A stretch of DNA of 13,035 bases from Sumerlaeia bacterium. GTDB taxonomy: Bacteria; Sumerlaeota; Sumerlaeia; SLMS01; JAHLLQ01. The translations under genes were made by a program, and so were the position numbers. Within the stretch, counting starts at the first letter, position 1, and each line of letters starts with the position of its first letter. The stretch covers positions 1 to 13,035 of the forward strand of contig JAVJSW010000036.1 in NCBI GenBank assembly GCA_040219255.1. Direction: 5' to 3'. The notes below the pieces were generated by a model. The model was not told the DNA's origin and did not search any database. It worked only from the letters and a program-made list of their open reading frames with translations. This document shows, piece after piece, positions 156 through 13,035 of the stretch.

Positions 156-1592
156 CTACATAAAGAAGCTGAATCGATGAGGTATCGGCGAGAATTGGGG
201 GACCCAGCGAAGCACGTCACCGACCTTTTGGGCAGCGCGTAGGGTGATGGGTTTTCCGCCATCGAATTGCGTATTGTTCCAGTTCATCTTCGTCAGGCTT
301 AGGATCTCGGCACACAGCTCGTCGACATCGCTATCCCCCGAGTCCTTTCTAACCTCCAGTGCTCGGGGCACGTAGTTGCCGGGGTAGGTTGAAAAATACT
401 CGACTGAGCCGCGCGTGTAGAGCAGCGCACGGTCTTCGTCGAGCGTCATGCAGGCTCCGCGCGGAATTGGATAAGCACCGATCCGGCACAAACGCATATC
501 CGAGGATCGAATCGAGACGAGGTCATGAAACCTGATGTTCTTCTCCTGCAACGCCTCTTGAATTCCCTCCACCTCCTCTTCCTTGAACGCGGAAGCCCTG
601 TGGAACACACACCTTGCGGGGGAATGATGATGTTCGGCCTCGTAGGCCTCCAGCATTTGTAGGATCAATTGTTTCGCTTCGGCGGCAGGGAGATACGGGC
701 GACGATCGGTTTTCGAGAACTCGGCAGGCCCACCTTGTAGGATCAAGCCGTCGCCTCGCTCGTCAAAAACTTGCGCCATCGAGGTGTGGAGGGCCGTGTT
801 GTCCGCATTCTTGAAGAACCCCAAGCCGACAAAACACGATGCGAGCTTCTTCGTGTCCTTCGGAATCCTCCAGGGGAAGCCCTTTGCCTTATAGTAAATC
901 GCTGTGACCAGGTTCCATGCACGCGTGGCCTCATCCTGCTGCTGCTTCACGACCTGCTTCCGCATCTGCCGCAGGTTCTGTCTGCTGATCATCTTGCCGC
1001 CTATCGTGGCGGGCCAAACAATCTGAGTCTGAATGTTGGCGACAAGTGCCTTGGCCTTCAGAATGTCGTGCAGATCGGGGATGATTCCGTCAGGAGTCAC
1101 TCCTCCTCGCGCCGCCGCGAGTTCTGCGCTCTTGCTGAGGATCTGGTTTGGAAGGACGATCAAGATGACATGTAGGCTTCTCTTCTGCGTGAGCCGCATG
1201 GCCTCTTGAGACAACCGCAGAGCGACGCGTTGGCAGAACGCAGAGAGGTCCGACTCCGCGCAAAGCTTGGTCAGTTCCAGTGCGGGCAACTCGCCCACTT
1301 CTTCGATTATGAACTCGGACTGGAATACACCGTTCCGCCCAAGAGCGGGAAACGGAGGAAAGAGATTTGGCTGCCGCGACTCTTTCGCGGGTATGCCGTT
1401 GGCCACGCTGACCAGCCACTTTTCTACCAGAGCCCGGTCCTCACGCGTCGCCACAACACCCAAGGAAACACGCGTCGGGCGCGAGACCTCGTTCACGTCA
1501 AACGGCCCGAAAGACGCAAGCCCGCCACGAATATCCACGTGGGTGTTTGAGTCGCCGAACTCCAACAGTGGTTCTGGGATTACCTTGAGCAT
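156..1592 (-). CDS. Short prokaryotic Argonaute (MID-PIWI only, slicer-inactive)
   Basis: 478 aa. N-terminal EPLLEFG...GPFD; MID 5'-end pocket residues LHDILKA, IQTQIV and NLVTAIYYKAKGFPW (HK-type); PIWI motifs CFVGLGF, VFHRAS, PIPRG, YPGNYVPRAL and EILSLTKMNWNN...PITL; C-terminal FFM. The catalytic Asp positions appear substituted. SD GGGAGGA lies inside the end of the upstream gene, with a 2-nt gap between the genes. Confidence 0.95.
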   Translation of the reverse strand: MLKVIPEPLLEFGDSNTHVDIRGGLASFGPFDVNEVSRPTRVSLGVVATREDRALVEKWLVSVANGIPAKESRQPNLFPPFPALGRNGVFQSEFIIEEVGELPALELTKLCAESDLSAFCQRVALRLSQEAMRLTQKRSLHVILIVLPNQILSKSAELAAARGGVTPDGIIPDLHDILKAKALVANIQTQIVWPATIGGKMISRQNLRQMRKQVVKQQQDEATRAWNLVTAIYYKAKGFPWRIPKDTKKLASCFVGLGFFKNADNTALHTSMAQVFDERGDGLILQGGPAEFSKTDRRPYLPAAEAKQLILQMLEAYEAEHHHSPARCVFHRASAFKEEEVEGIQEALQEKNIRFHDLVSIRSSDMRLCRIGAYPIPRGACMTLDEDRALLYTRGSVEYFSTYPGNYVPRALEVRKDSGDSDVDELCAEILSLTKMNWNNTQFDGGKPITLRAAQKVGDVLRWVPQFSPIPHRFSFFM

Positions 1593-1594
1593 AC

Positions 1595-2971
1595 CTAATC
1601 GTCCTCCCAGTCCGAACCGAAAAAGTCGTAATCAACGGAGGCGTCATCTGGTTCGGAGTTTGGGTCCGAAACAACCTCGTCTTTAGGGGGAAGCCATTCG
1701 GCATCTGGAACCTTGAAAGGGAGGATCTCAGATCGAAGCTCGCCGAACTCCAACCACTTGTGCCGTTGAGCGAACAACCCCGTTTGCTCGCCCAGGTAGT
1801 CCGCAAAGAACAGCACTTGAGACGTCACCGTGTTGTTCTTCTCCAGCTTTCGTAACCCAGAGAGCCACTCTTCGTGGCGCGGCTCCTGCTTTTCTCCATC
1901 AACGGTGTAGTGCCAGGTGGGGGTCAGGACCGCATACCAGTTCGTTGCGACTCGCTGCCAGCGCACCGCCACTGCCATATGCCGGTAGCTGTGAAACTTT
2001 CTACCTTCAAACTCCCGAATATCACCATGCACCACGGTCAAAGCTGAACTTCGTCCACATCTCTGATAGGAAATCTTGAGATCATTGGCGTCGTACGGTT
2101 TGCGGAAGTAGAAATACCCTCCTTCGGTCCATAGCTTCATCCCGCGTTCATACAGGAATCCGCGCAACAATTTGTTCAGCAACTCCACGAATCGCCGACT
2201 GCTCTCCGGATCATCCGCCCGCGCCCATTCAGTCCCCGCGTGCGATTCCACTGTTCCAGCTTCCACGAGGCTCTTCCACTCGGGTCTTGATAGGTCGTGA
2301 GCACTCAAGAGATAGTCGCCTCGCACCACGATCTCGCTGCTCTTCTCTCTGGCAGACTCGTTGAGCCATGCGAATGTCTCTTCTCGACTGCTGAAGACTG
2401 GCGTCGCTGTAAACACCTGCTCGGGGTAGCGCACCAGTTGCAGCATGTTCGTCCAAACCTTCTCCTCCTCGCGTGGGAGAGAGAAGTAGAAGCCCGAGCC
2501 CGGTGGTGCGGCGCGACGCAGAAGCTCTGCCCGAGAGTTTCGGTCAAAGCGCTGTGTCGCCTTGTTTATCCTGATGCCTTTGGAGCCATCGGACGCTGCG
2601 CGAGGAAAGTCGTTCGACCAGAAGTAGAAGGCCTCGTCGGGCTCACGGCTGACGATCACCAGAACAGGGAGATTGGCGCGACTCCAGTAATCCAGGTCCC
2701 GCTGGTCGGGCCGAAAGGTGAAGGCCTCTTCGTTCTCGTTATTGAAATAGGACGGGCCGCACTTGCTCTGCACGGCAATGTGGCTTCCGCTCACGGTGCC
2801 GGTGCCCTCGTCACGAAGTTCGATATACCCATCGATCCCCGCGTCGAACTGGGTGCGGGGAATCCAGAGACAACCCATATCGAGCACGATGCCCTCGATG
2901 ACGTTGATCCCCTTCTGCCCCGTGATGGAGGACTCAGGAAGTGTTTTCGGTCTCCTTGGCGAACGGGGCAT
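1595..2971 (-). CDS. DUF4365/DREN PD-(D/E)xK-type nuclease fused to APAZ; effector of a SPARDA-type short pAgo system
   Basis: 458 aa. The N-terminus GQKGINVI...FDAGIDGYIELRD...IAVQSK...DLDYWSRANLPVLVI is typical of DUF4365. The C-terminal half has APAZ-like motifs (EKVWTNML, RRFVELLN, YFYF, RHMAV..RWQR...WYAVLTPTWHYTVDG, LEKNNTV). It sits immediately upstream of the short pAgo and has SD GGAGGA. Confidence 0.88.
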   Translation of the reverse strand: MPRSPRRPKTLPESSITGQKGINVIEGIVLDMGCLWIPRTQFDAGIDGYIELRDEGTGTVSGSHIAVQSKCGPSYFNNENEEAFTFRPDQRDLDYWSRANLPVLVIVSREPDEAFYFWSNDFPRAASDGSKGIRINKATQRFDRNSRAELLRRAAPPGSGFYFSLPREEEKVWTNMLQLVRYPEQVFTATPVFSSREETFAWLNESAREKSSEIVVRGDYLLSAHDLSRPEWKSLVEAGTVESHAGTEWARADDPESSRRFVELLNKLLRGFLYERGMKLWTEGGYFYFRKPYDANDLKISYQRCGRSSALTVVHGDIREFEGRKFHSYRHMAVAVRWQRVATNWYAVLTPTWHYTVDGEKQEPRHEEWLSGLRKLEKNNTVTSQVLFFADYLGEQTGLFAQRHKWLEFGELRSEILPFKVPDAEWLPPKDEVVSDPNSEPDDASVDYDFFGSDWEDD

Positions 2972-3002
2972 TTTGGTCCTCCGGTCCTAGATCAGTAGTT
3001 GA

Positions 3003-4730
3003 TTACATCTCTATGCTTGGAGGAAGCTCGCTGTCTTCTGTAGTCACAGGCTCCTTGAGTGACTGTTTCGATTGAATGCAGCTAATCGCATTTCTAAGCC
3101 CCTCATTCAAACGTCGAATCAGTATCAGTCCTCGCTCCTTCATGTCGCTGATCGCCATGTTCTCTTTCTTGAGGAACTTATCCAAATCGGAACCCTTCAG
3201 GTGAGCGGCGCTCCTGGACCGGATGGCTTGGCACAGCTTCAGAGCGTTGAGCAGATCCTTCAGGCAGTCAGCCACGGCGAGGCCGTTCGCGGCAGCGTGC
3301 TCTAGCATACTGATCGAACCTTTGTTCTCTTCAGGTAGGCTCGTCATCTTCTTCTTGAGCGCACTGACGTTGATCGAATCGCAGGCAATCTTTGCAAGCG
3401 ACTGTACGAATTCATCGAAGTGCTTCTGCTCATTGACGGAGGGAAGGTGAAGGGCATTCAGGTGGTGTGCATCTCCTGGAGGAAGCGACCGGAACAGCGG
3501 CTCGCCCAGCATCGGAATGAACAGCGCATTTACTTCGCCGATCAGAATCTTGAATCGGTGGATTGGATCCAGGTTCTCTGGAAGATCGACAAACTTGGCT
3601 TCGAAGTCCCGAGCAAATCTTGCGGCGGAGATCCCCTGCTTGGTCGCGACTTGGTGAGCCTGCCAGTGTAGCTGCTCCTTGTATGGCATCTTGAAGAAGT
3701 CGCCTGCGTAAACATTCACAAGGTCGGTCTCGTGATTGATCTCGATATAAACACTCCATAGGCCTAGACACCGAAGTATGCCAGGCTCCACGTCGTACTT
3801 GCTGGGCTCGTCGTAGTATTTCTTCAGCACCGCTCGCTTGAAATTGATCGGAGTCAAGTATCGAACGCGCTCGCCCGTACCCCTTAGGCGAAAATCCTCA
3901 TCACCAAAGCACTCCAACTCGATCAGGTTACCGTCATCATCTCGACCCAATGAAACTGTAGCCCATTTCTGCTCTGGCGCGGCTACCTTGCCGGAGTCAA
4001 AGGGGAGCGTTACGTCGCATCCACGCAGAATTGAGCATGCACCAAAGGAGGTGACCATTCGAGTAGCATCCGGAGTTACATGAACTTCGTACCGACCAAT
4101 TCCGTTCTTGGGCGAAAGGATCTCACTATCAAACTCATTCTCAGGAATCACCACCTTGGTCGGTAAGAATCTTCTGTGGTCAAACTGCCGAAGAAGAGCG
4201 ACGCTCTTTAGCATGAGCCAAAGGCGTAGATGATAGGTGCTGACGAGAACCCTTTTTGTGGGCTTTCCTTGGCCCGAAAGACCCTGAAATCTAACAACGA
4301 CGATTTCCTCCCCACCGTCGTCGGTGTGGCGTAGCTCGGACAGGTCGGCGTTCGGATAGAGATTCCATGCGAGTACGAACTCGGTGGAAATCTCAAAGTG
4401 ATTCGGATGCCCGCCGTGGTACTCACGCAGAAATGTGAATGGTTCCGCCTCGATACCAAACCGGGCAGCGGGTGTATCATAACGCCAAATCTTCCCAAAG
4501 TTGTCGTACCAGATACAATACTTCCCGAAACATGGGTCGGCAGGCCAATCATCGCGTTCGAGGTATTCGGTAAATGGAGCTGCTCCCATCGGCACTAACA
4601 CGGACGTCCCGAAGAAGTCACCGTTCTCTCCCTTCTCCGAAATAGCGACAGTCAGCCACTCAGAGTCGCCGTAGTCGCTAACACCGGCGAAGTCTCGAAA
4701 GCGCAGGAATTCCAGGTCCTTGGTCGTCAT
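3003..4730 (-). CDS. Uncharacterised 575-aa protein with C-terminal helical HEPN-like domain (putative RNase effector)
   Basis: Long ORF. The start is re-called to ATG 4730 (MTTKDLEF), which has SD GAGGT at 6-nt spacing and no overlap with hsdS. The helical C-terminus contains CQAIRSRSAAHLKG (R-x5-H at 3201-3221). The central block is YLTPINFKRAVLKKYY...LRCLGLW...MPYKEQLHW. The CDS is secure and the HEPN call is tentative. Confidence 0.7.
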   Translation of the reverse strand: MTTKDLEFLRFRDFAGVSDYGDSEWLTVAISEKGENGDFFGTSVLVPMGAAPFTEYLERDDWPADPCFGKYCIWYDNFGKIWRYDTPAARFGIEAEPFTFLREYHGGHPNHFEISTEFVLAWNLYPNADLSELRHTDDGGEEIVVVRFQGLSGQGKPTKRVLVSTYHLRLWLMLKSVALLRQFDHRRFLPTKVVIPENEFDSEILSPKNGIGRYEVHVTPDATRMVTSFGACSILRGCDVTLPFDSGKVAAPEQKWATVSLGRDDDGNLIELECFGDEDFRLRGTGERVRYLTPINFKRAVLKKYYDEPSKYDVEPGILRCLGLWSVYIEINHETDLVNVYAGDFFKMPYKEQLHWQAHQVATKQGISAARFARDFEAKFVDLPENLDPIHRFKILIGEVNALFIPMLGEPLFRSLPPGDAHHLNALHLPSVNEQKHFDEFVQSLAKIACDSINVSALKKKMTSLPEENKGSISMLEHAAANGLAVADCLKDLLNALKLCQAIRSRSAAHLKGSDLDKFLKKENMAISDMKERGLILIRRLNEGLRNAISCIQSKQSLKEPVTTEDSELPPSIEM

Positions 4731-4758: not shown

Positions 4759-5946
4759 TCACAACCCTGCCATGAACGCCCGTTGCAGCGCCGCTTCAAA
4801 CGTTGCGTCCGACTCGTTGCACTGTGCAGCTAAGCGGTTTCGAGTCTTGAAAACGCCCCAAGTGAAGTCCGCGAAAGCGTCCTGAAGCTTGGGATCTGGC
4901 GTCGGAATCTCATATTGTATAAGTTTCTTCTGCGAGACGTTCAGCATTGAACCGCTGGTACCGGTTGCTAGTGTGGCGAACTTACTTCGGAAGAGCGGGT
5001 CTGCCATCAGGTACTTCAAGTATTCCTTCCTAAGCTGCTTGGGATTCGTCTCGATGGTCCAAAGCTTATCTGGCAGGAATAGGCCCTCCGTATTTTCTTC
5101 GACGATCGCCATGGCAGCGACAAGCTCCCGAGTGTTGGCTCGGCTGAAGATGAGGTCTCCCTTTTTGGGTCTGACCAAGGTCTCCTCGGCTGGCGGATCG
5201 TTCACAACCTTGTGCTCATGTGGAAGGAATCGACCACTCGTCACCGCGCTGATCTTCAGAACTGCCCATTCGTCCTTCGCGCGTTGGCGCTGTTCACCAC
5301 CAACGCTTTTGCCTGCACGAATTTCCGTGATCATGTCTCCCAATCGAACCATTGGCCACCCCTTCGGATTTGTGACGGGGTCGCCGAACATGTCGAGGAA
5401 CGTGGAGCGGATGAGGTCGTCGGTAAGGTTGAGGGCCTGCTGAGCTTTGCGGCGCAGCGTGTCCGCCTTGTCGAGGATCGCCGCAATCCGCCGCTGCTCC
5501 GTGAGGGGAGGGAGCGGGATTTGAAGTTTCTTCAGGTCATCAATTAGGATACCTTTTACTGTAGCACCTTTCCCCATACGTTCAAGATCCGCGCCCTTAC
5601 TGATGATAAAGTGCAGTAGGTAACGAGGATACAGCTGTGGGCCAGCCACAAGCGCCTTCAGGTCCTGGTTTATCGCAACGTCCTTTGTTGCTATCGCCGC
5701 TCTCCCTAGGGCCATCCGCGTGGCGGTTATCACATGACCGGCTTCGATTACTTGGCTGGCGCTGTTTTGAAGACCTTCTTCGGTGATCGACTCTTGGACA
5801 GCGCTCAACTCCGAACCTTGAAGATCCTTTACCGTCGCCCAGGGGATGTTTCCGCCCCAGTATGCGGGGTTGTGTCGGGATGGCGTGCCGCCTCCCTTTA
5901 TAGTGATAAGGTCGCCAAGCAGACTGACAGGGATTGAGGTACTCAC
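4759..5946 (-). CDS. hsdS: Type I restriction-modification specificity subunit
   Basis: 395 aa with two TRDs (GGGTPSR...WGGNIPWATVKDL...AINQD and DLIFSRANTRELV...GTSGSMLNVSQ). They are separated by the conserved IPLPPLTEQRRIAAILDKAD...FLDMFGDPVTNPKGW. The GTG start overlaps the hsdM stop (GTGA). Confidence 0.96.
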   Translation of the reverse strand: MSTSIPVSLLGDLITIKGGGTPSRHNPAYWGGNIPWATVKDLQGSELSAVQESITEEGLQNSASQVIEAGHVITATRMALGRAAIATKDVAINQDLKALVAGPQLYPRYLLHFIISKGADLERMGKGATVKGILIDDLKKLQIPLPPLTEQRRIAAILDKADTLRRKAQQALNLTDDLIRSTFLDMFGDPVTNPKGWPMVRLGDMITEIRAGKSVGGEQRQRAKDEWAVLKISAVTSGRFLPHEHKVVNDPPAEETLVRPKKGDLIFSRANTRELVAAMAIVEENTEGLFLPDKLWTIETNPKQLRKEYLKYLMADPLFRSKFATLATGTSGSMLNVSQKKLIQYEIPTPDPKLQDAFADFTWGVFKTRNRLAAQCNESDATFEAALQRAFMAGL

Positions 5947-7523
5947 TTCAGCATTCCCCCCAGCTCCTCGATGTCCGCCGCGATCTCTTCTTGCAACGCG
6001 CGGAGACGCCCGAGGATGACCTTGGGAGCGTCGTACTCAACGGCGACGTGATTGGACTCGCGGTAGCGGTTGATGGAAAGGTCGTAGCCTTCTTTGACGA
6101 TGTCCGTCAGGGATACAGCGAAGCATTTGGACTTCCGGTCGGCGAAGTCTTTGTTGTTCTTCCGCTCGCGCCATTCCGCCCAGCGCGTGGCAACGTCGGG
6201 GATGTCGTTCTCCTTCACTTCCTGGCGCTTGTCGTCGAGCGAGAACCCGTCAGCCTCGACGTCGTAGAAGAAAACGTCCTCGGTCTTGCCGCCCCTGGTG
6301 AAGACCAGGATGGCTGTAGCGACGCCCGCATAGGGCTTGAACACGCCGCTGGGGAGGTTGACGACGGCTTCCAGCTGGTTCTCCTCCACCAGCATCCTGC
6401 GCACGGCGACATGGGCGGTTGAGCTGCCGAACTGGACGCCGTTGGGAACCACGACGGCGCAGCGCCCGCCGAGGCGAAGCATCTGAACCATGAGCGCAAG
6501 GAAGAGGAGTTCTGTCTTCGTGGTCTTCACCTTACGCTTGAGGCTCGGCAGGAGCGCCTGCTCGTCGAGGCTCCCCTTGAATGGTGGGTTCGCAAGGATG
6601 ACATCGAAGGCATCCTTGACGAGTGCCGGGTGGCGATCGTCAAAGCTGGCGGCAAGCGTGTCCTGGTAGTGGATGTTGGGTTCGTCGAGGCCGTGAAGGA
6701 GGAGGTTCATGGCTGAGACGCGGAGCATCGTGGCGTCAAAGTCGAAGCCGTGGATTCCATCTGCGATCTGACGGCGTTGGTCTGCGGTGAGAAGGTCTCC
6801 GGTATAGGAGACGTCGGTACGACCGGTCTCGGGATCGACCTGTTCGATGCGTCCTGCCTCCGAGGTATGCTGGCGCATGATGTGGGCGATGGTGCGCACG
6901 AGGAAGCCCGCCGTGCCGCAGGCAGGGTCTGCGATGCGGTCGCCGGGTTGGGGCGCCACCATCTCGACCATCAGGTCAATAATGTGGCGGGGCGTGCGAA
7001 ACTGGCCGTTGATGCCCGCCGTTGTGAGCTTGGCGAGGACGTGCTCGTAGATGTCGCCCTTCCAGTCATCGCTCGTCAGGTCGAGTTCGCTGATCATGTT
7101 GACCGCGCGGACCAGCAGGTCGGGCTTGGAGATGAGGAACTGGGCATCCTTGAAGAATTCACCGATGGACATCTTCAGGCAGACGCGGTGCATGTGGCCA
7201 AAGACCCCCTGCTCGGCCTTGATCCCCTTCTCCGGATCGGCAGGCCAACCCCGGAAGAGGTCGAGCATCTCCTGGCCACCAAGTTCCTTGAAGCGATGCC
7301 AGCGCAGATGCTGTTCGTCGGGACCGTAGAGAAGCTTGCCGCGCAGTTCGGCATCACCGAGGCGCTGGATCTTCTTCTCGGTGAGACTCTCGCGCATGTC
7401 CAGCAGCCGCAGGAAGATGAGGTAGCTGAGCTGCTCGATGACGGTGAGGGGGTTGGCGATGCCTCCCGCCCAAAAGGACGTCCATAGTGTATCGATTTTT
7501 GTTTTCATGGCACCAGTTATCAT
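5943..7523 (-). CDS. hsdM: Type I RM N6-adenine DNA methyltransferase subunit
   Basis: 526 aa. N-terminal MITG...LW..FWAGGIANPLTVIEQ, GQFRTPRHI, SAM-binding motif I DPACGTAGFL, catalytic motif IV LANPPF, and LPSGVFKPYAGV. ATGA overlap with the hsdR stop. Confidence 0.97.
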   Translation of the reverse strand: MITGAMKTKIDTLWTSFWAGGIANPLTVIEQLSYLIFLRLLDMRESLTEKKIQRLGDAELRGKLLYGPDEQHLRWHRFKELGGQEMLDLFRGWPADPEKGIKAEQGVFGHMHRVCLKMSIGEFFKDAQFLISKPDLLVRAVNMISELDLTSDDWKGDIYEHVLAKLTTAGINGQFRTPRHIIDLMVEMVAPQPGDRIADPACGTAGFLVRTIAHIMRQHTSEAGRIEQVDPETGRTDVSYTGDLLTADQRRQIADGIHGFDFDATMLRVSAMNLLLHGLDEPNIHYQDTLAASFDDRHPALVKDAFDVILANPPFKGSLDEQALLPSLKRKVKTTKTELLFLALMVQMLRLGGRCAVVVPNGVQFGSSTAHVAVRRMLVEENQLEAVVNLPSGVFKPYAGVATAILVFTRGGKTEDVFFYDVEADGFSLDDKRQEVKENDIPDVATRWAEWRERKNNKDFADRKSKCFAVSLTDIVKEGYDLSINRYRESNHVAVEYDAPKVILGRLRALQEEIAADIEELGGMLK

Positions 7524-10500
7524 TGGTGTGGGCGGACCTCGGGGTTCTGGGGTTGGAATTTCTGAATAACGCTCAGCAGGTAGTCAACCTGCTGCGATTC
7601 GGTGAAGATGCCGTCCACCCCGTCCGAATGGAGGGAGGTGAAAGGGGCTTCGTAAAGCTCTTTCAGTTCGATCGCGCCGAAGCGGCGGATGTGGTTCTTC
7701 AGGAGGTCGAGAAACTGGATTTGACGGGCGGTGAGCATGGGGTAGCGCGTCACGAAGGCGACGAACTCGCGCTCCACTGCCTCGGCATCCAGGCCGATAA
7801 TGCGACGGATCAGGAAGTCGAGGGGCGTCGTCAGATTCCCATAAAACTCCTGGAGTAAGGCGAGGTGGACGTTGGAGTCCTGCACGAGGATGAGTTTCTG
7901 GAGCGCATCGAGATCGGCCTGAGTCACCGGTTCGCCGCGCTTGATCCTCTTGAGCGTCGGACTTGTCTTTTCCAGATCGCGTAGGATGCGCTCGACACGC
8001 TGGCGGTAGGCAGCCTGATCCAGAGACGACATGGTCTTGAGCGTATAGTACGTGGACTCCGTCTCTGCGACGACTTCCGGAACGTCTATGATCTTGGGCG
8101 GGAGGCCGGGAGGCTCCGTAGAGCGCTGGCGGTAACGCATGATACCACGGAGCTGGAGGCGAAGGTCCTCAAGATCAGCACATGTTGCCGTAGTCCAGAA
8201 CGGCGCGTCCGGTGTCTCGATCTTCTGGAGCCACTGTGCCTTGGCCTTCACCTGGGTTAGGTTACGAGGAAGTTGGAGGACCTGGTCGATCAGATCGTCG
8301 CGGAGATTGGTAAAGCTTGCGCTTTGACGCATCAGTTCAAGTTGCATGCGGGCGATGAGCAGGTCGAAGCGATAGGCATCAGCGTCGCTACCGATGTCGC
8401 GCCACTGCATGAGCCGGGCGATCTCGCTGCGGAGGACTCCCTTGGTCTGGGGATCGAACTGACGCAGGACGTCGGGGTTCCGAGTCACGAGTACGTGGCG
8501 CCAGCGTTCGCGCACGGGGACCGAGTGCTCGGGGAGATCCTGGATGTCTTTTTGAAGAAGATCGATGGCGATACCGAAGAAAGTCTCGTCGAACTTCTGA
8601 AGGGCCATCTCGGCAAGGTCGATGCGTGCCTCAAAGAGCTGCTCCAATACTGCCTTAGGCCGGACGTCGGGGCGTTCCTTGTAGTTGGTGACGTCGAAGC
8701 GTTCAAAATTTCCCCAGTGATCGAAGATGAGGAAGTCCTTCTTGTGGTTCCCTGGCCCGAAGAGATTGTGGCACAGGCGTGTGCCTCGACCGATCATCTG
8801 CCAAAATTTCACGAGCGAGAACACTGGTTTGGCGAAGACGAGGTTTACGACCTCCGGCACGTCGATGCCGGTGTCCAGCATGTCGACTGAGATTGCGATA
8901 GTCAGGTTCTTGGTCGAATCCTTGAACTCGTCGATGAGGGTTTCGGCTCGGGGGTCGTAGGTGTCGATCACCCGGCAGAAAGTGCCGCCATACTGGGGAT
9001 ATAGTTCGTGGAAGAGACTCTCCAGAAGGATGGCGTGCTGGTGATTGCGAGCGAAAATGATGGTCTTGCCCGGGCGGGAGCCGGATGCGTCACGGATTCC
9101 GCTCTCCATCAGGTTGCGGATGACCTGGCGATTCGTATCCTTGTTGAAGACTGCTCGGTCGAGGTCTCCTGGGGCGAAGTTGTAGAGCTGGGCCTGATCG
9201 TCCTGATCGAGAAGAATCTCCTGCTGCTCGGGCGTAAGCTGAGCCCAACGGATGCCTGATCGCAACAAACCGGTCGTGTGGATCTTGGGAACGAACGGGA
9301 CGAGATTTCCCTCTTCGATAGCCTTTTCTAAGCTGTAGGAAAAGGTCGGATCGAGAGGTGGCCTATCGAAGAGCCGATAAGTGTCGCGGTGTACCATCTG
9401 GACAGGCGTTGCAGTAAGTCCTATTTGGATGGCATCGAAGTAGGTCAGGATGTTTCTGTAACGATTGTAGATGCTCCGGTGGCTCTCGTCGGCGATAATG
9501 AGGTCGAAGAAGCCGGGATCGAACGATTCATAGGCCTTGAGCATCGCCGGGTAGGTAGCCAGGTAGATGCGTGAGTTCCTATCCTCAGAAGTCTTTGCTG
9601 TAACGAAGGTACGAGGCTCTCCTGGCAGGAACTCCTTGAAGGCATTGTGCGCCTGCTTGCGCAGTTCCAACCGGTCGCAGAGGAAGAGTATCCTGACGGC
9701 GTGCCCGGCTCGGTTCAGGAGGTCACACAACGCCACAGCCACACGGGTCTTGCCGGTTCCCGTTGCCATGACAATCAAGCCCCGGCGTTTGCGTGCCGTT
9801 AGGTCGTCGGTGACGCGCTTGATAGCTTCGATCTGATAAAGCCGATCGATGATCCTCGGGTCGTGGGAAACTTGGTCGAGAGGCTTGGCGTGGCGGCGAG
9901 CGATGAGACTCTTTAGACTATCCGGCGCGTAGAATCCGAAGAGTCGGCGAGGAGTATCGCCCGCCGCATCGTTCCAGATCCAGATCTCGTATCCATTAGT
10001 GTAAAAGATGACAGGGCGAAAGCCGCCGTATTGCTTCTCCAGCGCATCCGCGTAGAGCTTTGCCTGCTGACGTCCCTTGGATGGCTCCTCGCTAGTTTTC
10101 TTTGCCTCGACCACGGCAAGGGGTTTGCCGTTCTCTGCATAAAGGACGTAGTCGCACTTGCCTTGCCCTGAGTTCGTAGGCTGCCCGTCGACCTCTATCT
10201 CTTGTCCGACTTCCTCCGTGCTAGAGCCATCAAGCCCGACGTGCCACCCAGCATCGAGCAAGAGCCGATCAATAAGCTGCTTCCGCGTCGTAGCCTCATT
10301 GAACTTCAACTCGTCCAAGTGGGCGGCACCCTGCTGCTGGAGGGCACGCAGCTCGGTTTCAGACTTGGCAGCAACTTCTGCTTCGGCCCGCGTCCGTTTC
10401 AGTTCGTCGAGGAGGCGAAGCGTTTCGGCTTCTTTCGTCTCTAGCTCACGCTGGAGCTTTTCGCGCTCCCGCTCCTGTTCTTGGGCATCGAGCTTTGCAA

Positions 10501-10933
10501 AGCCACTCGCAGCGGGAGGACGAAAGGGACTGATGTCGGACCGTTGACCTTGATCGTAAGACAAATGGAGCCATTCGGCAAGCTTGCGCGTTTCCTGTAG
10601 GAGGTTCAGGGCGTCGGCGGTAGTGACTGGTTTGCCGTGGGCGCCACGATTCCCAAAGCGTCTGATGAGGTGCAGGAGGTCGAGAATCTGCTTGGGGACG
10701 CGAGACTCAAAGGCGGGATAGCGGAGCAAGTCGAGGAAGTTGAGTTCGATGCGGGCGGGAAAGCCCATCAGCTCATAGACGATCAGGGTGAGGCGTTCGC
10801 CAAAGAGACGGAGCTTGACCATCGCACTGGCAGGATCAGGATGCGCGTACCTCTCGGCATAGCCAGCCAGATCGGCAAGCTCAGGGCGGAGGGTTCTCAG
10901 GAATTCAAAATTCTGCGAGGGCATCGAAAGCAT
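7520..10933 (-). CDS. hsdR: Type I restriction endonuclease/translocase subunit R with N-terminal DUF4145-like domain
   Basis: 1137 aa. Nuclease motif CDYVL...VVEAKK, Walker A MATGTGKT, DESH box IIADESHRS, GLTATP, MLDTGIDVP and QMIGRGTR. The C-terminus is EcoEI_R_C-like. An alternative start at ATG 10924 has AGGA 8 nt upstream. Confidence 0.97.
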   Translation of the reverse strand: MLSMPSQNFEFLRTLRPELADLAGYAERYAHPDPASAMVKLRLFGERLTLIVYELMGFPARIELNFLDLLRYPAFESRVPKQILDLLHLIRRFGNRGAHGKPVTTADALNLLQETRKLAEWLHLSYDQGQRSDISPFRPPAASGFAKLDAQEQEREREKLQRELETKEAETLRLLDELKRTRAEAEVAAKSETELRALQQQGAAHLDELKFNEATTRKQLIDRLLLDAGWHVGLDGSSTEEVGQEIEVDGQPTNSGQGKCDYVLYAENGKPLAVVEAKKTSEEPSKGRQQAKLYADALEKQYGGFRPVIFYTNGYEIWIWNDAAGDTPRRLFGFYAPDSLKSLIARRHAKPLDQVSHDPRIIDRLYQIEAIKRVTDDLTARKRRGLIVMATGTGKTRVAVALCDLLNRAGHAVRILFLCDRLELRKQAHNAFKEFLPGEPRTFVTAKTSEDRNSRIYLATYPAMLKAYESFDPGFFDLIIADESHRSIYNRYRNILTYFDAIQIGLTATPVQMVHRDTYRLFDRPPLDPTFSYSLEKAIEEGNLVPFVPKIHTTGLLRSGIRWAQLTPEQQEILLDQDDQAQLYNFAPGDLDRAVFNKDTNRQVIRNLMESGIRDASGSRPGKTIIFARNHQHAILLESLFHELYPQYGGTFCRVIDTYDPRAETLIDEFKDSTKNLTIAISVDMLDTGIDVPEVVNLVFAKPVFSLVKFWQMIGRGTRLCHNLFGPGNHKKDFLIFDHWGNFERFDVTNYKERPDVRPKAVLEQLFEARIDLAEMALQKFDETFFGIAIDLLQKDIQDLPEHSVPVRERWRHVLVTRNPDVLRQFDPQTKGVLRSEIARLMQWRDIGSDADAYRFDLLIARMQLELMRQSASFTNLRDDLIDQVLQLPRNLTQVKAKAQWLQKIETPDAPFWTTATCADLEDLRLQLRGIMRYRQRSTEPPGLPPKIIDVPEVVAETESTYYTLKTMSSLDQAAYRQRVERILRDLEKTSPTLKRIKRGEPVTQADLDALQKLILVQDSNVHLALLQEFYGNLTTPLDFLIRRIIGLDAEAVEREFVAFVTRYPMLTARQIQFLDLLKNHIRRFGAIELKELYEAPFTSLHSDGVDGIFTESQQVDYLLSVIQKFQPQNPEVRPHQ

Positions 10934-10969: not shown

Positions 10970-12472
10970 TCAATCCTCCACCCCATAACGCTTCAACCAA
11001 TTCGTAAGTGTCTGATAGCTTGGAAGTCCGACCAGCTTTGCCGCCTGAGACTTGTTCCCATGGGTTTCATCCATGGCTCGCTCTAGGTAGTGCCGCGCGA
11101 CTTGATCGATCAAGTCGTTTAGATTCAAGCCTTCTCCGAGCGGTCGCCCCAAAACGTCTCCGCTCGCTTTTACAGGTCCGCTGAGGATGGCTTCCCGGAT
11201 GTCATCGACGGTGATCGTGGCTCCGAGGGACCAAACGATCGCCCTCTGGAGGATGTTGATCAGCTCGCGTACGTTTCCGGGATAGGAATGCTGAAGCAGA
11301 AGGTTCCTTGCGCCTGCGGAAAGTTTCTTATCCACATGACCCGGCTGACCCTTCGACTCCCGGTTGATCTGTTGAAGGTAATGATCGACCAGGAGAGAGA
11401 GATCGCGCCCTCGTTCCCGCAGTGCGGGAATCTTGAGAACCGCAACGGCGACGCGGTGGAACAGGTCCTCACGGAAACGACCTGCAAGCACGTCCTGGCT
11501 AAGGTCACGGTGTGTTGCGGCAATGAGGCGGAAATCGACCTTTTTGGGGCGACTGCTACCTACTTTAGTGACCTCATGCTCCTGAAGCACTCGGAGAAGA
11601 CGGACTTGGGCGTGAAGAGGAAGCTCGCCGATCTCATCGAGGAAGAGGGTCCCTCCGTGGGCTTCCTCGACGTGGCCTGTGCGTGGCTGAGTCGCTCCAG
11701 TGAATGCGCCCTTCTCATGGCCAAATAATTCGGAGTCGACCAATTCCTCCGGGATGGCTCCGCAGTTGACCGCGATGAACTTGCCGTTCTTTCGCGCGGA
11801 TGATTGGTGTATGGCCCGCGCGAAGAGTTCCTTCCCAGTCCCGGATTCGCCGAGGAGGAGGACAGGAAGTGTCCTTGAAGCCACACGCCGAGCCTTGAGA
11901 ACCACCTTCTTCATCGCCTCGCTGTTGTGGAGGATCGCGTCAAACTCCGGCGCCTTGGGAGCAAGACCCAAATTCAGAGTGATGAGGTCGATGTCAGCCT
12001 GCTGAAGTCGGGTCGCTGTGAACTCAGCGGAGAGTTCAAAAGGGAAGTCAACCTCCCGGACCCCATGCGTAGCAGACGACTCGATGAGCGTCGCTGGATA
12101 TGCAGTCTTGCCGACTAGCAGCCAGATGGACGCCATCGCAGGTGTCCCCGGCGAAAGGTGAAAGAAAAGATTAGGCCGCATCTTCTGGTCGCTGAGCACT
12201 GATCTGAGCGTGTCCTCGACAGCCGCGAAAATCTCTCGGTGCGCAGTTGGTGACGACAGGGTGCGGGGATGCAGAACAAGCTCGGCCTTCGACCTTGGCT
12301 TCAACCACTCAAGGTATCGCGCATTGTCCGGCTCTGGGTAGTTGCTGAGAAGATGCACGCTGCCAAAAGACCGCCAACGGACTGCCTGAGCGATAGGCCC
12401 AAGGTTCTGGCCGTCGTCAGCGGCGGCAGCGTTGAGGTCGGTTTTGCCTATCCATGCGAAGAGAGCGTCCAT
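10970..12472 (-). CDS. Sigma54-dependent transcriptional regulator (bEBP): probable RtcR/CARF-like sensor domain, AAA+ domain and Fis-type HTH
   Basis: 500 aa. Walker A GESGTGKE, AVNCGAI, ELFGHEKGAFTGA, Walker B LFLDEIGEL, FREDLFHR, YPGNVREL, and HTH GNKSQAAKLVGLPSYQTL. The N-terminus AWIGKTDL...GPI...VHLL...FHLSPGTPAMASIWLL resembles RtcR-type CARF domains and is not a receiver or PAS domain. Confidence 0.92.
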   Translation of the reverse strand: MDALFAWIGKTDLNAAAADDGQNLGPIAQAVRWRSFGSVHLLSNYPEPDNARYLEWLKPRSKAELVLHPRTLSSPTAHREIFAAVEDTLRSVLSDQKMRPNLFFHLSPGTPAMASIWLLVGKTAYPATLIESSATHGVREVDFPFELSAEFTATRLQQADIDLITLNLGLAPKAPEFDAILHNSEAMKKVVLKARRVASRTLPVLLLGESGTGKELFARAIHQSSARKNGKFIAVNCGAIPEELVDSELFGHEKGAFTGATQPRTGHVEEAHGGTLFLDEIGELPLHAQVRLLRVLQEHEVTKVGSSRPKKVDFRLIAATHRDLSQDVLAGRFREDLFHRVAVAVLKIPALRERGRDLSLLVDHYLQQINRESKGQPGHVDKKLSAGARNLLLQHSYPGNVRELINILQRAIVWSLGATITVDDIREAILSGPVKASGDVLGRPLGEGLNLNDLIDQVARHYLERAMDETHGNKSQAAKLVGLPSYQTLTNWLKRYGVED

Positions 12473-12477
12473 GGGTT

Positions 12478-12540
12478 CTAGATATAAGGTGACTTATGGG
12501 GGGCGCAAGGAGTCTTGTGGGAAATGTCAGAAGATTTGTG
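12478..12540 (-). promoter_or_regulatory. Three tandem degenerate palindromic operator-like sites with 21-bp period, overlapping the likely promoter of the regulator
   Basis: The minus strand reads CACAAATCTTCTGACATTTCC | CACAAGACTCCTTGCGCCCCC | CATAAGTCACCTTATATCTAG, with units starting at 12540, 12519 and 12498. The proximal unit has a perfect ATAAG-N4-CTTAT. TTGCGC (12508-12503) and TATATC (12486-12481) are -35/-10-like. Confidence 0.6.
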
Positions 12541-12730
12541 CCGCTAAGTCGTGGTTCAAGAAGATAATCGCGCCGATCTTGAGCGATCACAAATAACTGA
12601 AAATGGATGACTTGCGCTATTTTAGGCGCTTGCTTCTGCCGACCACTCGGTACACTTATGCCGGTGGTTTAGATTCTGCTCCTACATGAACAACAACGCG
12701 GCTTCCACTCACGCCCCGGCGTGCTAGTCC

Positions 12731-13035
12731 GTAAGCGTCAGTTGAGCCACGTTCCCGGCGGCCTTGCCATCGTCCGTGGCAGGGCGTAGCGTCTCCACGA
12801 GCCTCGAGCCCGCTTGGCCTGGGGAAGCACCGTTTCGCTCGCGTTGGTCTTTGCGGATGTTGACTGCTGTCGAATCCTCAGCCGATTTCGGCCGCATCCT
12901 CGGTTGCAGCCCGAGCCGCCATCCAGCGGTCCGGCAACCATTGAGCCAATTGGCTTTGCGGCGAGTCCGGCAGCTCTGTGAAGAGAGCCTGCAGGTAGCC
13001 CAGGGGGTTGGCGCCGGCCCGCGCGGCGCTCTCGA
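12731..13035 (-). mobile_element. IS66-family insertion sequence, downstream (right) end; continues beyond the window
   Basis: The terminal sequence GTAAGCGTCAGTTGAGCC begins at 12731, and IS66 inverted repeats start with GTAA. It lies about 150 bp after the stop of an IS66 TnpC-like C-terminus. Confidence 0.82.
12878..13035 (-). CDS. tnpC: IS66 family transposase TnpC, C-terminal fragment (partial, absent from the ORF track)
   Basis: Translation from 13033 gives ESAARAGANPLGYLQALFTELPDSPQSQLAQWLPDRWMAARAATEDAAEIG*. This matches the IS66 C-terminal pattern ET/SA...G..P..YL..vL..LP......l..lLP..W. Confidence 0.85.
   Translation of the reverse strand, partial: ESAARAGANPLGYLQALFTELPDSPQSQLAQWLPDRWMAARAATEDAAEIG

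Follow-up and report, generated by a model that had tools for sequence, protein, structure and literature searches.

We analyzed a 13,035-nt contig assigned to a Sumerlaeia bacterium (JAVJSW010000036.1), the whole of which is referred to here as the window, and conclude that its positions 156-2971 very probably encode a functional two-gene SPARDA system, made up of a short Argonaute (pAgo) and a nuclease that joins a DREN domain to an APAZ domain (DREN-APAZ). The locus is another SPARDA, very divergent, and not a new system. SPARDA was defined on NbaSPARDA, a heterodimer described as recognizing DNA with an RNA guide and then acting as a collateral DNase/RNase, which kills the cell upon entry of a plasmid or phage (bioRxiv 10.1101/2023.06.08.544223); activation is described as filament assembly together with tetramerization of DREN (bioRxiv 10.1101/2025.04.08.647717; PMC12205087; PMC12774872). 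As far as can be judged from sequence, all of the features of SPARDA (clade S2B) that we looked for are present at the locus. Its architecture, domains, catalytic residues and gene order match those of described SPARDAs, and in this respect an earlier reading of this DNA, which had proposed a SPARDA-type system here (the original prediction), is borne out.

The two genes lie on the minus strand, which the original prediction had not specified, with DREN-APAZ upstream, and together they fill 156..2971 exactly. In the list of open reading frames (ORFs), the DREN-APAZ gene (P0001) occupies 1595..2971 and encodes 458 aa, and the pAgo gene (P0002) occupies 156..1592 and encodes 478 aa, the stop codon being included in each case; both start with ATG, are full length and contain no stops or frameshifts. 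At the junction, which reads GAC GAT TAG GT ATG CTC on the minus strand, the DREN-APAZ stop codon (1597-1595) is followed by a 2-nt gap (1594-1593) and the pAgo ATG (1592-1590), exactly as had been predicted for a nuclease-APAZ gene with a MID-PIWI Argonaute 2 nt behind it. A Shine-Dalgarno-like GGAGG, presumably functional, can be read from the sequence 6 nt 5′ of the DREN-APAZ ATG at 2971 (2978..2982, minus strand), and a second stands 10 nt 5′ of the pAgo ATG, still inside the 3′-terminal part of DREN-APAZ (1603..1607, minus strand). Through this internal GGAGG, translation of pAgo may be coupled to that of DREN-APAZ.

The nuclease was identified by its domain matches and by its active site. 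Residues 19-154 of DREN-APAZ match Pfam DUF4365 (1.1e-23; 84.3 bits, the cut-off being 24.3), and residues 9-433 match the PADLOC model Aga_REase-PNTD1-PNTD2 (3.6e-111); residues 169-404 are matched by PADLOC SIR2-PNTD1-PNTD2 models as well. Among PDB chains the best match to this partner is 9jsb_D (4.2e-39, 138 bits, residues 10-432), and 9qbp_A (2e-35) and 9qbq_A (1.2e-33) are likewise matched over DREN and APAZ. The APAZ part by itself (residues 170-426) matches the DREN-deleted Xau chain 9qbl_A (6e-11), and residues 169-395 match the HNH-APAZ chain 9om4_A (4e-10). The entries 9QBL, 9QBQ and 9QCC have one pAgo sequence in common, and the 321-aa chain 9QBL_A is the one from which DREN was deleted; on these grounds we assign the three to XauSPARDA and 9QBP to EaeSPARDA. 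From the alignments to solved APAZ chains and the PADLOC models, the APAZ domain is placed at about residues 169-433 (1673..2467, minus strand).

The putative PD-(D/E)XK active site of DREN, D43-A-G-I-D47 ... Q68-S-K70 (2762..2845, minus strand), contains the D-x-G-I-D and Q-S-K motifs that the original prediction had singled out in the effector, and HMMER alignments equate its residues D47, Q68 and K70 with D41, Q60 and K62 of NbaSPARDA and with D41, Q62 and K64 of XauSPARDA, E37 of the latter being replaced by D43. D41, Q60 and K62 are described as the catalytic residues of NbaSPARDA (PMC12205087), and in XauSPARDA the changes D41A, Q62A and K64A are described as abolishing activity and E37A as reducing it (bioRxiv 10.1101/2025.04.08.647717). 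In an alignment of the window protein with 73 of its 74 other hits (74 rows; the omitted hit covered only 24% of the query), D47 is kept in 73/74 rows, Q68 in 74/74 and K70 in 73/74. Position 43 is E in 51 of the 74 rows and D in 22, so that D43 is a natural variant. The protein ends in an acidic tail (residues 434-458; 1598..1672, minus strand), and the net charge of its last 30 residues is -11, compared with a family mean of -5. In apo XauSPARDA an acidic C-terminal tail is described as occupying the nucleic-acid groove, from which the target strand displaces it (bioRxiv 10.1101/2025.04.08.647717); the tail encoded in the window fits this arrangement and may, by analogy, be autoinhibitory.

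The second protein matches PADLOC pAgo_I over residues 2-478 (6.7e-146), covering positions 3-455 of the 455 in the model; like the DUF4365 and Aga_REase-PNTD1-PNTD2 matches of its partner, this greatly exceeds what chance would give. Its closest PDB chains, which are 482-485 aa long and matched over nearly their full length, are 9qbp_B (4.5e-90; residues 3-465 align to 6-471), 9qbl_B (1.9e-86) and 9jsb_A (6.5e-83). The SPARDA chains score 282-306 bits, compared with 199 for the SPARHA chain 9om4 (1.3e-57), at most 137 for the 8ifk/8fex group (7e-39 and weaker) and 103 for 8in8 (1e-28). We take the 8ifk/8fex group to be SPARTA and 8in8 to be SPARSA; their depositors call these chains 'Piwi domain-containing' or 'short pAgo' proteins. 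With its 478 aa and its end-to-end match to short pAgos, the protein consists of MID and PIWI only, lacking an N or PAZ domain.

To describe individual residues we aligned the pAgo with 49 of its 119 other listed hits, picked across the list. K179, Q190 and K235 are invariant in 49/49 relatives, and position 175, which is H in the window, is R in 29/49 and H in 20/49. We take H175, K179, Q190 and K235 to form the pocket that receives the guide's 5′ end, going by the Argonaute MID motif. The pocket of NbaAgo, which is described as carrying an RK motif (bioRxiv 10.1101/2023.06.08.544223), is a further basis for this assignment. The residues that read guide base 2 in XauSPARDA, Q222 and N230, correspond to Q219 and N227, both invariant in 49/49 relatives and encoded with the pocket in 888..1070 (minus strand); the reader of the g1 adenine, N179, corresponds to D173, a D in 37/49. 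Residues E281/R282 of the Xau response loop are represented by E278/R279, which are kept in 48/49 and 47/49 relatives, and the large sensor loop (Xau 298-304) aligns to residues 295-301. The C-terminal methionine of the pAgo is conserved as well. The PIWI stretch at 591..830 (minus strand) holds the response-loop pair, the sensor-loop equivalent D296-L301 and two putatively dead slicer positions, G258 and A333.

Loss of the slicer had been proposed from the motifs CFVGLGF and VFHRAS, and both occur as quoted (C253-FVGLG-F259 and V329-FHRA-S334), as do the two effector motifs. We compared the protein with TtAgo, using the plasmid pTT27 copy; the TtAgo tetrad is D478, E512, D546 and D660. Over TtAgo 515-642, D546 ('LRDG') is placed on A333 ('HRAS') by BLASTP (E 9e-6) as well as by hhalign (96% probability), which upholds the VFHRAS part of the claim. 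The CFVGLGF part holds by motif only, V-G-F-D478 against V-G-L-G258, in a region outside the confident alignment. D660 probably corresponds to A454, again by motif and in a low-confidence extension of the hhalign alignment, and E512 was not placed on the query in that extension. When the entire PIWI domain was aligned to TtAgo by hhalign at low mact, confidence was near zero outside query residues 302-441, and this alignment was set aside for positions 1, 2 and 4. Taken together, PIWI appears to lack the DEDX slicer tetrad, the confidently aligned change being D546 to A333.

A complex of the pAgo with residues 165-458 of DREN-APAZ was predicted with a score of 0.84 in 3/3 runs, and all three controls scored 0.00; the pLDDT of the partner was 78-79 and contact agreement was at least 50%. 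The mark used for such complexes is reached by 116/157 solved complexes and by 2/215 mismatched pairs, although a pass may in this case reflect mere likeness, because SPARDA complexes have already been solved. The APAZ residues predicted to contact pAgo are 170-176, 335-350, 374-387 and 415-428.

With gene structure, domain content and residue conservation observed at the locus and the interface predicted, we infer every biochemical step of the following model by homology to NbaSPARDA and XauSPARDA. DREN-APAZ and pAgo would be produced from one transcript, as the pAgo ATG 2 nt past the stop codon of its partner and the internal GGAGG suggest, and would form a 1:1 APAZ:pAgo heterodimer. The pAgo, presumably dead as a catalyst, would load small cellular RNAs and hold the guide 5′ end in the pocket of H175, K179, Q190 and K235. 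When the guide pairs with complementary single-stranded DNA of an invader, the acidic DREN-APAZ tail would be expelled from the groove, the sensor loops of PIWI pushed and the response loop with E278/R279 extended. The complexes would then polymerize into filaments, within which DREN tetramers would become active metal-dependent PD-(D/E)XK nucleases (D47, Q68 and K70, with D43 helping) and degrade DNA indiscriminately. The infected or plasmid-bearing cell would die or stop growing, and the population would thereby be protected.

The family to which this pAgo belongs is large and widespread. Relatives of the pAgo and of its partner were sought in a collection of 5.8 billion proteins, where 1547 pAgo hits at E <= 0.001 were obtained among the candidates scored. 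Species-representative genomes yielded 502 confirmed pAgo stretches, of which 80 loci were kept; these span Cyanobacteriota, Pseudomonadota, Acidobacteriota, Actinomycetota, Planctomycetota, Chloroflexota and other phyla. Plasmid records number 99, and 50 of these are predicted to be conjugative. In 77 of 81 loci (the 80 relatives and the window) the ORF immediately upstream of pAgo encodes APAZ, and at the other 4 no APAZ ORF was found; the commonest arrangement of the two genes is a 4-nt overlap (34 loci). A DREN hit accompanies 58 of the 77 upstream APAZ ORFs; the other 19 lack one, and some of these may be truncated. Five loci whose APAZ ORFs have no DREN hit (L033, L034, L037, L038 and L055) form a well-supported pAgo clade. 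At L037, L038 and L055 the APAZ protein has 593-618 aa, a length suggesting that the SPARDA-like pAgo is paired with another kind of effector head; with just 179 aa (L033) and 368 aa (L034), the ORFs of the other two loci may be truncated or begin at the wrong place.

Within this family the pair in the window is the most divergent found in the searches made, and it is an orphan lineage on a deep branch. By BLASTP, identity to the 80 loci does not exceed 42% for the pAgo and 34% for the partner. No pAgo homologue was found in 40 related genomes with a completeness of 72-97% (10 of the same family, 14 of the order and 16 of the class), no match to either protein was found in PHROGs, and no plasmid matched 156-2971 when searched at the DNA level. 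A pAgo tree of 78 rows was built in a quick LG+G4 mode, three rows with a pAgo ORF of less than 400 aa having been dropped. In it the window pAgo sits on a long branch, with no supported sister. The tree pairs it with Nitrospira moscoviensis (L075; support 74), but we do not take the two for sisters, both being long branches whose join was flagged by the program. Placement relative to Xau, Eae and Nba is by the PDB bit scores given above, since Xau, Eae, Nba and Tmu are not among the 80 loci.

Several observations weigh against the identification of the locus as a functional SPARDA and are gathered here. In the 5.8 billion proteins the nearest relatives are at most 44% (pAgo) and 37% (partner) identical. 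The window pAgo has the longest terminal branch of the 78-row tree, at 1.19 substitutions per site compared with a median of 0.16. It keeps 114 of the 133 positions that are >=90% conserved (86%), where the 49 relatives keep 92-100% (median 98%), and the partner retains 73% of such positions (48 of 66), where the median is 97%; among the changes are F to G at 23 and, beside the response loop, R to Q at 286. Among the profile matches, those to DUF4365 and PADLOC pAgo_I are strong, but the match to Pfam Piwi reaches only 23 bits and stays under the gathering score of 28.9 bits. A confident alignment to an active Argonaute, TtAgo, was obtained for a single slicer position out of four. The residues Q269/Q270 of the Xau apo dimer are not kept, the window having T266/A267 in an 'NTAL' stretch, and the resting state may differ for that reason. 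Finally, the characterized SPARDAs differ from one another in their guide-end rules. Most of the changes at conserved positions are conservative (F/L, R/K, Y/F and L/I).

The last two points bear on an alternative, namely that the locus follows the SPARDA principle under different rules for the chemistry or base of the guide 5′ end, with a monomeric resting state, or with another activation threshold or substrate range. Characterized SPARDAs already vary in this way. Tmu is described as preferring guides with 5′-OH and 5′-U (PMC10810196), Xau and Eae as needing 5′-P and 5′-AU, and in the apo state the Nba, Tmu and Kje systems are described as monomers and Xau and Eae as dimers (bioRxiv 10.1101/2025.04.08.647717). 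D173 in place of N179, H in place of R in the pocket, T266/A267 in place of Q269/Q270 and Q in place of R286 would all be compatible with altered rules. However, D173 and H175 are common variants in the family and not specific to this lineage, the base-2 readers Q219 and N227 are invariant, and none of the residue changes found is a known specificity switch. We regard different rules as possible, a prospect to be kept in mind but one that we tend to doubt.

All of the long ORFs of the window are on the minus strand. The contig is compositionally foreign to its genome bin: it has a G+C content (GC) of 57.0%, compared with 63.6% for the assembly of 5.35 Mb and 83 contigs; among 712 genome windows of 13 kb, 0.1% have a GC as low, and 0.3% have a greater tetranucleotide distance. 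The estimated contamination of the assembly is 3.3%. Given this composition, it may represent an island gained by horizontal transfer, a piece of a plasmid or a contig placed in the wrong bin.

Upstream of the SPARDA pair, on the same strand, lie a gene for a 575-aa protein (3003-4730, taking the ATG start of the ORF) and hsdS (P0004; 4759-5946), hsdM (P0005; 5943-7523) and hsdR (P0006; 7520-10933). HsdS matches Pfam Methylase_S in two stretches and PADLOC Specificity_I (4.4e-82), HsdM matches Pfam N6_Mtase and HsdM_N and PADLOC MTase_I (1.5e-162), and HsdR matches Pfam ResIII, HSDR_N and EcoEI_R_C and PADLOC REase_I (1.1e-263). Positions 4759-10933 thus encode a complete type I restriction-modification (R-M) system, hsdR-hsdM-hsdS, with 4-nt overlaps. 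HsdR has an N-terminal extension of about 220 aa, in which residues 76-114 match DUF4145 and which matches the first 208 positions of the PADLOC candidate PDC-M16A (4.4e-33). The co-directional array is headed, 36 nt before hsdR, by an RtcR-like sigma54 activator of CARF-AAA-HTH organization (10970-12472, minus strand; PADLOC RtcR_PspF2, 7.5e-193; NCBIfam RtcR, 343 bits, under the cut-off of 650 bits), upstream of which 12473-12723 is non-coding. No rtcA or rtcB gene was found on the contig. At the far end, a 103-aa open-ended minus-strand ORF upstream of the activator (12724-13035) is cut by the contig end, and neither of the two partial end ORFs at 12724-13035 has a Pfam or NCBIfam match. 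At the other end a minus-strand ORF starts at position 54 (ATGGAACAC...), about 100 nt past the pAgo stop codon and preceded by GGAGAG, and is cut by the contig end (1-54). Scans of the window for sigma70 promoters and terminators gave hits at or below shuffle levels, and scans for tRNAs, Rfam families and repeats gave nothing useful.

The 575-aa gene has the lowest GC on the contig (52.7%), and searches of Pfam, NCBIfam, PADLOC 2.0 and PHROGs with its protein gave no match. The protein belongs to a family of 1236 cluster representatives at E <= 0.001, 265 of them at E <= 1e-30. No Pfam family was found in more than 1 of 46 members, the family profile matched no PDB sequence below E 0.04, and a Foldseek search of the protein model against the PDB gave no match at E <= 0.001; the AlphaFold model, built with 46 sequences, is confident (pLDDT 86.8, pTM 0.80). 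At the C-terminus the protein carries R504-x5-H510, which is conserved in the family. The motif of the HEPN superfamily is R-x(4-6)-H within an all-helical domain, and in the 575-aa protein a HEPN-like R-x5-H motif appears to be combined with an Avs3-like domain. On a Pseudomonas syringae plasmid a homologue directly follows gmtY, a VPA1269-family gene and gmtX; the one literature search on this family gave 0 occurrences of 'HEPN' for the GMT preprint, which does not make the family an undescribed one. Its genomic context was read from 113 neighbor proteins of >=200 aa lying within two genes of the homologue at 57 metagenome loci, 23 of the 80 loci having no such neighbor. A clear restriction or defense domain was seen at 15 loci, a count without a background control, and 6 more loci have ambiguous domains (UvrD, YhcG, PLD and AAA_13). 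The clear domains at the 15 loci are GmrSD, type I, II and IIG R-M, AbiJ, AbiEii, BrxL, SIR2, TIR, Cas1 and an OLD-type ATPase. We consider the 575-aa gene an unnamed candidate defense gene that recurs beside restriction and other defense genes. The idea that it is a conserved SPARDA accessory was rejected, 0 of the 80 SPARDA loci carrying the family. It is the more open question, and in the window a better lead to novelty than the SPARDA pair.

That SPARDA is one module of a co-regulated seven-gene array, in which the 575-aa protein might cooperate, is in our estimate improbable. The seven minus-strand genes are separated by gaps of 36, -4, -4, 28, 31 and 2 nt (the 28 assumes the ATG at 4730), and 12473-12723, upstream of the first of them, is the sole long non-coding stretch. 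On that strand, weak consensus scans gave terminator-like hits only inside coding sequence and found no sigma70-like promoter. Against such an array speak the absence of the 575-aa family from the 80 related SPARDA loci just mentioned and the converse finding, by single-sequence phmmer, of no pAgo or DREN-APAZ in 80 loci of the 575-aa family; moreover, type I R-M genes adjoin only 4 of the 80 related SPARDA loci. A weak consensus scan for sigma54-type promoters gave 4 matches, compared with 5.5 expected by chance, none of them before a gene start.

A further proposal combines the two preceding ones, making the pair both an orphan lineage with novel guide-end, activation or substrate rules and the last module of a CARF-sigma54-headed seven-gene array induced by RNA-damage signals, and we give it little credence. 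If it were true, the pair would provide an orthogonal programmable detection nuclease distinct from the four characterized systems, and the CARF-sigma54 activator could induce the island on RNA fragments, for example those released by the HEPN-like neighbor. That the pair is instead a decaying or neutralized relic, still of SPARDA architecture but deprived of activation or nuclease function under relaxed selection, is very improbable. The longest branch of the tree, a retention of conserved positions that is the lowest among the aligned members for both proteins, the lack of close relatives in the 5.8 billion proteins and that of a pAgo homologue in the 40 related genomes would suit it. Against it, both ORFs are intact, as are the ribosome-binding sites; DREN has all three of its essential residues, and the pAgo has its MID pocket, the residues of the filament loop and the conserved C-terminus; substitutions are mostly conservative, and the partners diverge in step while their predicted interface stays confident. 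We read the pair as a probably functional deep branch of SPARDA, not a relic.

For SPARDA as a class these results change little. SPARDA is already understood mechanistically and applied, and another copy leaves the picture as it was. The original prediction was right that the class is known, but it overstated the interest of the locus, since three systems (Nba, Xau and Eae) have solved structures in the PDB and TmuRE-Ago (TmuSPARDA) is described as characterized biochemically and used for nucleic-acid detection (PMC10810196). The deep branch is still a reasonable source for an orthogonal reagent, because the characterized SPARDAs differ in their guide-end rules. The pair also shows which residues survive extreme divergence, namely D47, Q68, K70, the MID pocket, the E and R of the response loop and the C-terminal residues, and it marks a small defense island on foreign-looking DNA.

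Among known systems, the chains that we take to be SPARTA and SPARSA (8IFK, 8FEX and 8IN8) share the sensor core of the pair and an effector head activated by oligomerization but have TIR or SIR2 NADase heads and lower pAgo similarity. SPARHA (short pAgo with HNH-APAZ; PDB 9OM4; PMC12738770) has the same core of short pAgo and APAZ sensor and likewise an effector head activated by oligomerization; it differs in its HNH nuclease head and in a pAgo that is clearly less similar, at 199 bits. TmuSPARDA (Thermocrispum municipale; Lu et al., NAR 2023, PMC10810196) resembles the pair by description, being a heterodimer of DUF4365-APAZ and a short pAgo in which RNA-guided recognition of DNA leads to non-specific DNA cutting, and it prefers 5′-OH guides with 5′-U. 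NbaSPARDA (Novosphingopyxis baekryungensis; PDB 9JSB, 9JSP, 9JSZ, 9JT2, 9VX1 and 9VX6; Prostova et al., bioRxiv 10.1101/2023.06.08.544223; PMC12205087; PMC12774872) provides the best DREN-APAZ match in the PDB, a pAgo match of 6.5e-83 and an aligned catalytic triad, and by analogy with it RNA-guided DNA sensing, filaments, DREN tetramerization and a collateral nuclease would be expected of the pair; it is distant, however, the partner scoring 138 bits and the pAgo 282, and has an RK pocket motif where the window has HK. The best pAgo matches in the PDB (4.5e-90 and 1.9e-86) are to EaeSPARDA and XauSPARDA (Enhydrobacter aerosaccus and Xanthobacter autotrophicus; Jurgelaitis et al., bioRxiv 10.1101/2025.04.08.647717). 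The partner match is lower here (2e-35 and 1.2e-33), and with respect to Xau, E37 is replaced by D43, N179 by D173 and the first pocket residue, R, by H, and Q269/Q270 are not kept. Shared with these two systems are the gene order, the combination of DREN-APAZ with a MID-PIWI pAgo of about 480 aa, the catalytic D, Q and K, the Q and N that read g2, the E and R of the response loop, an equivalent of the sensor loop and the acidic tail.

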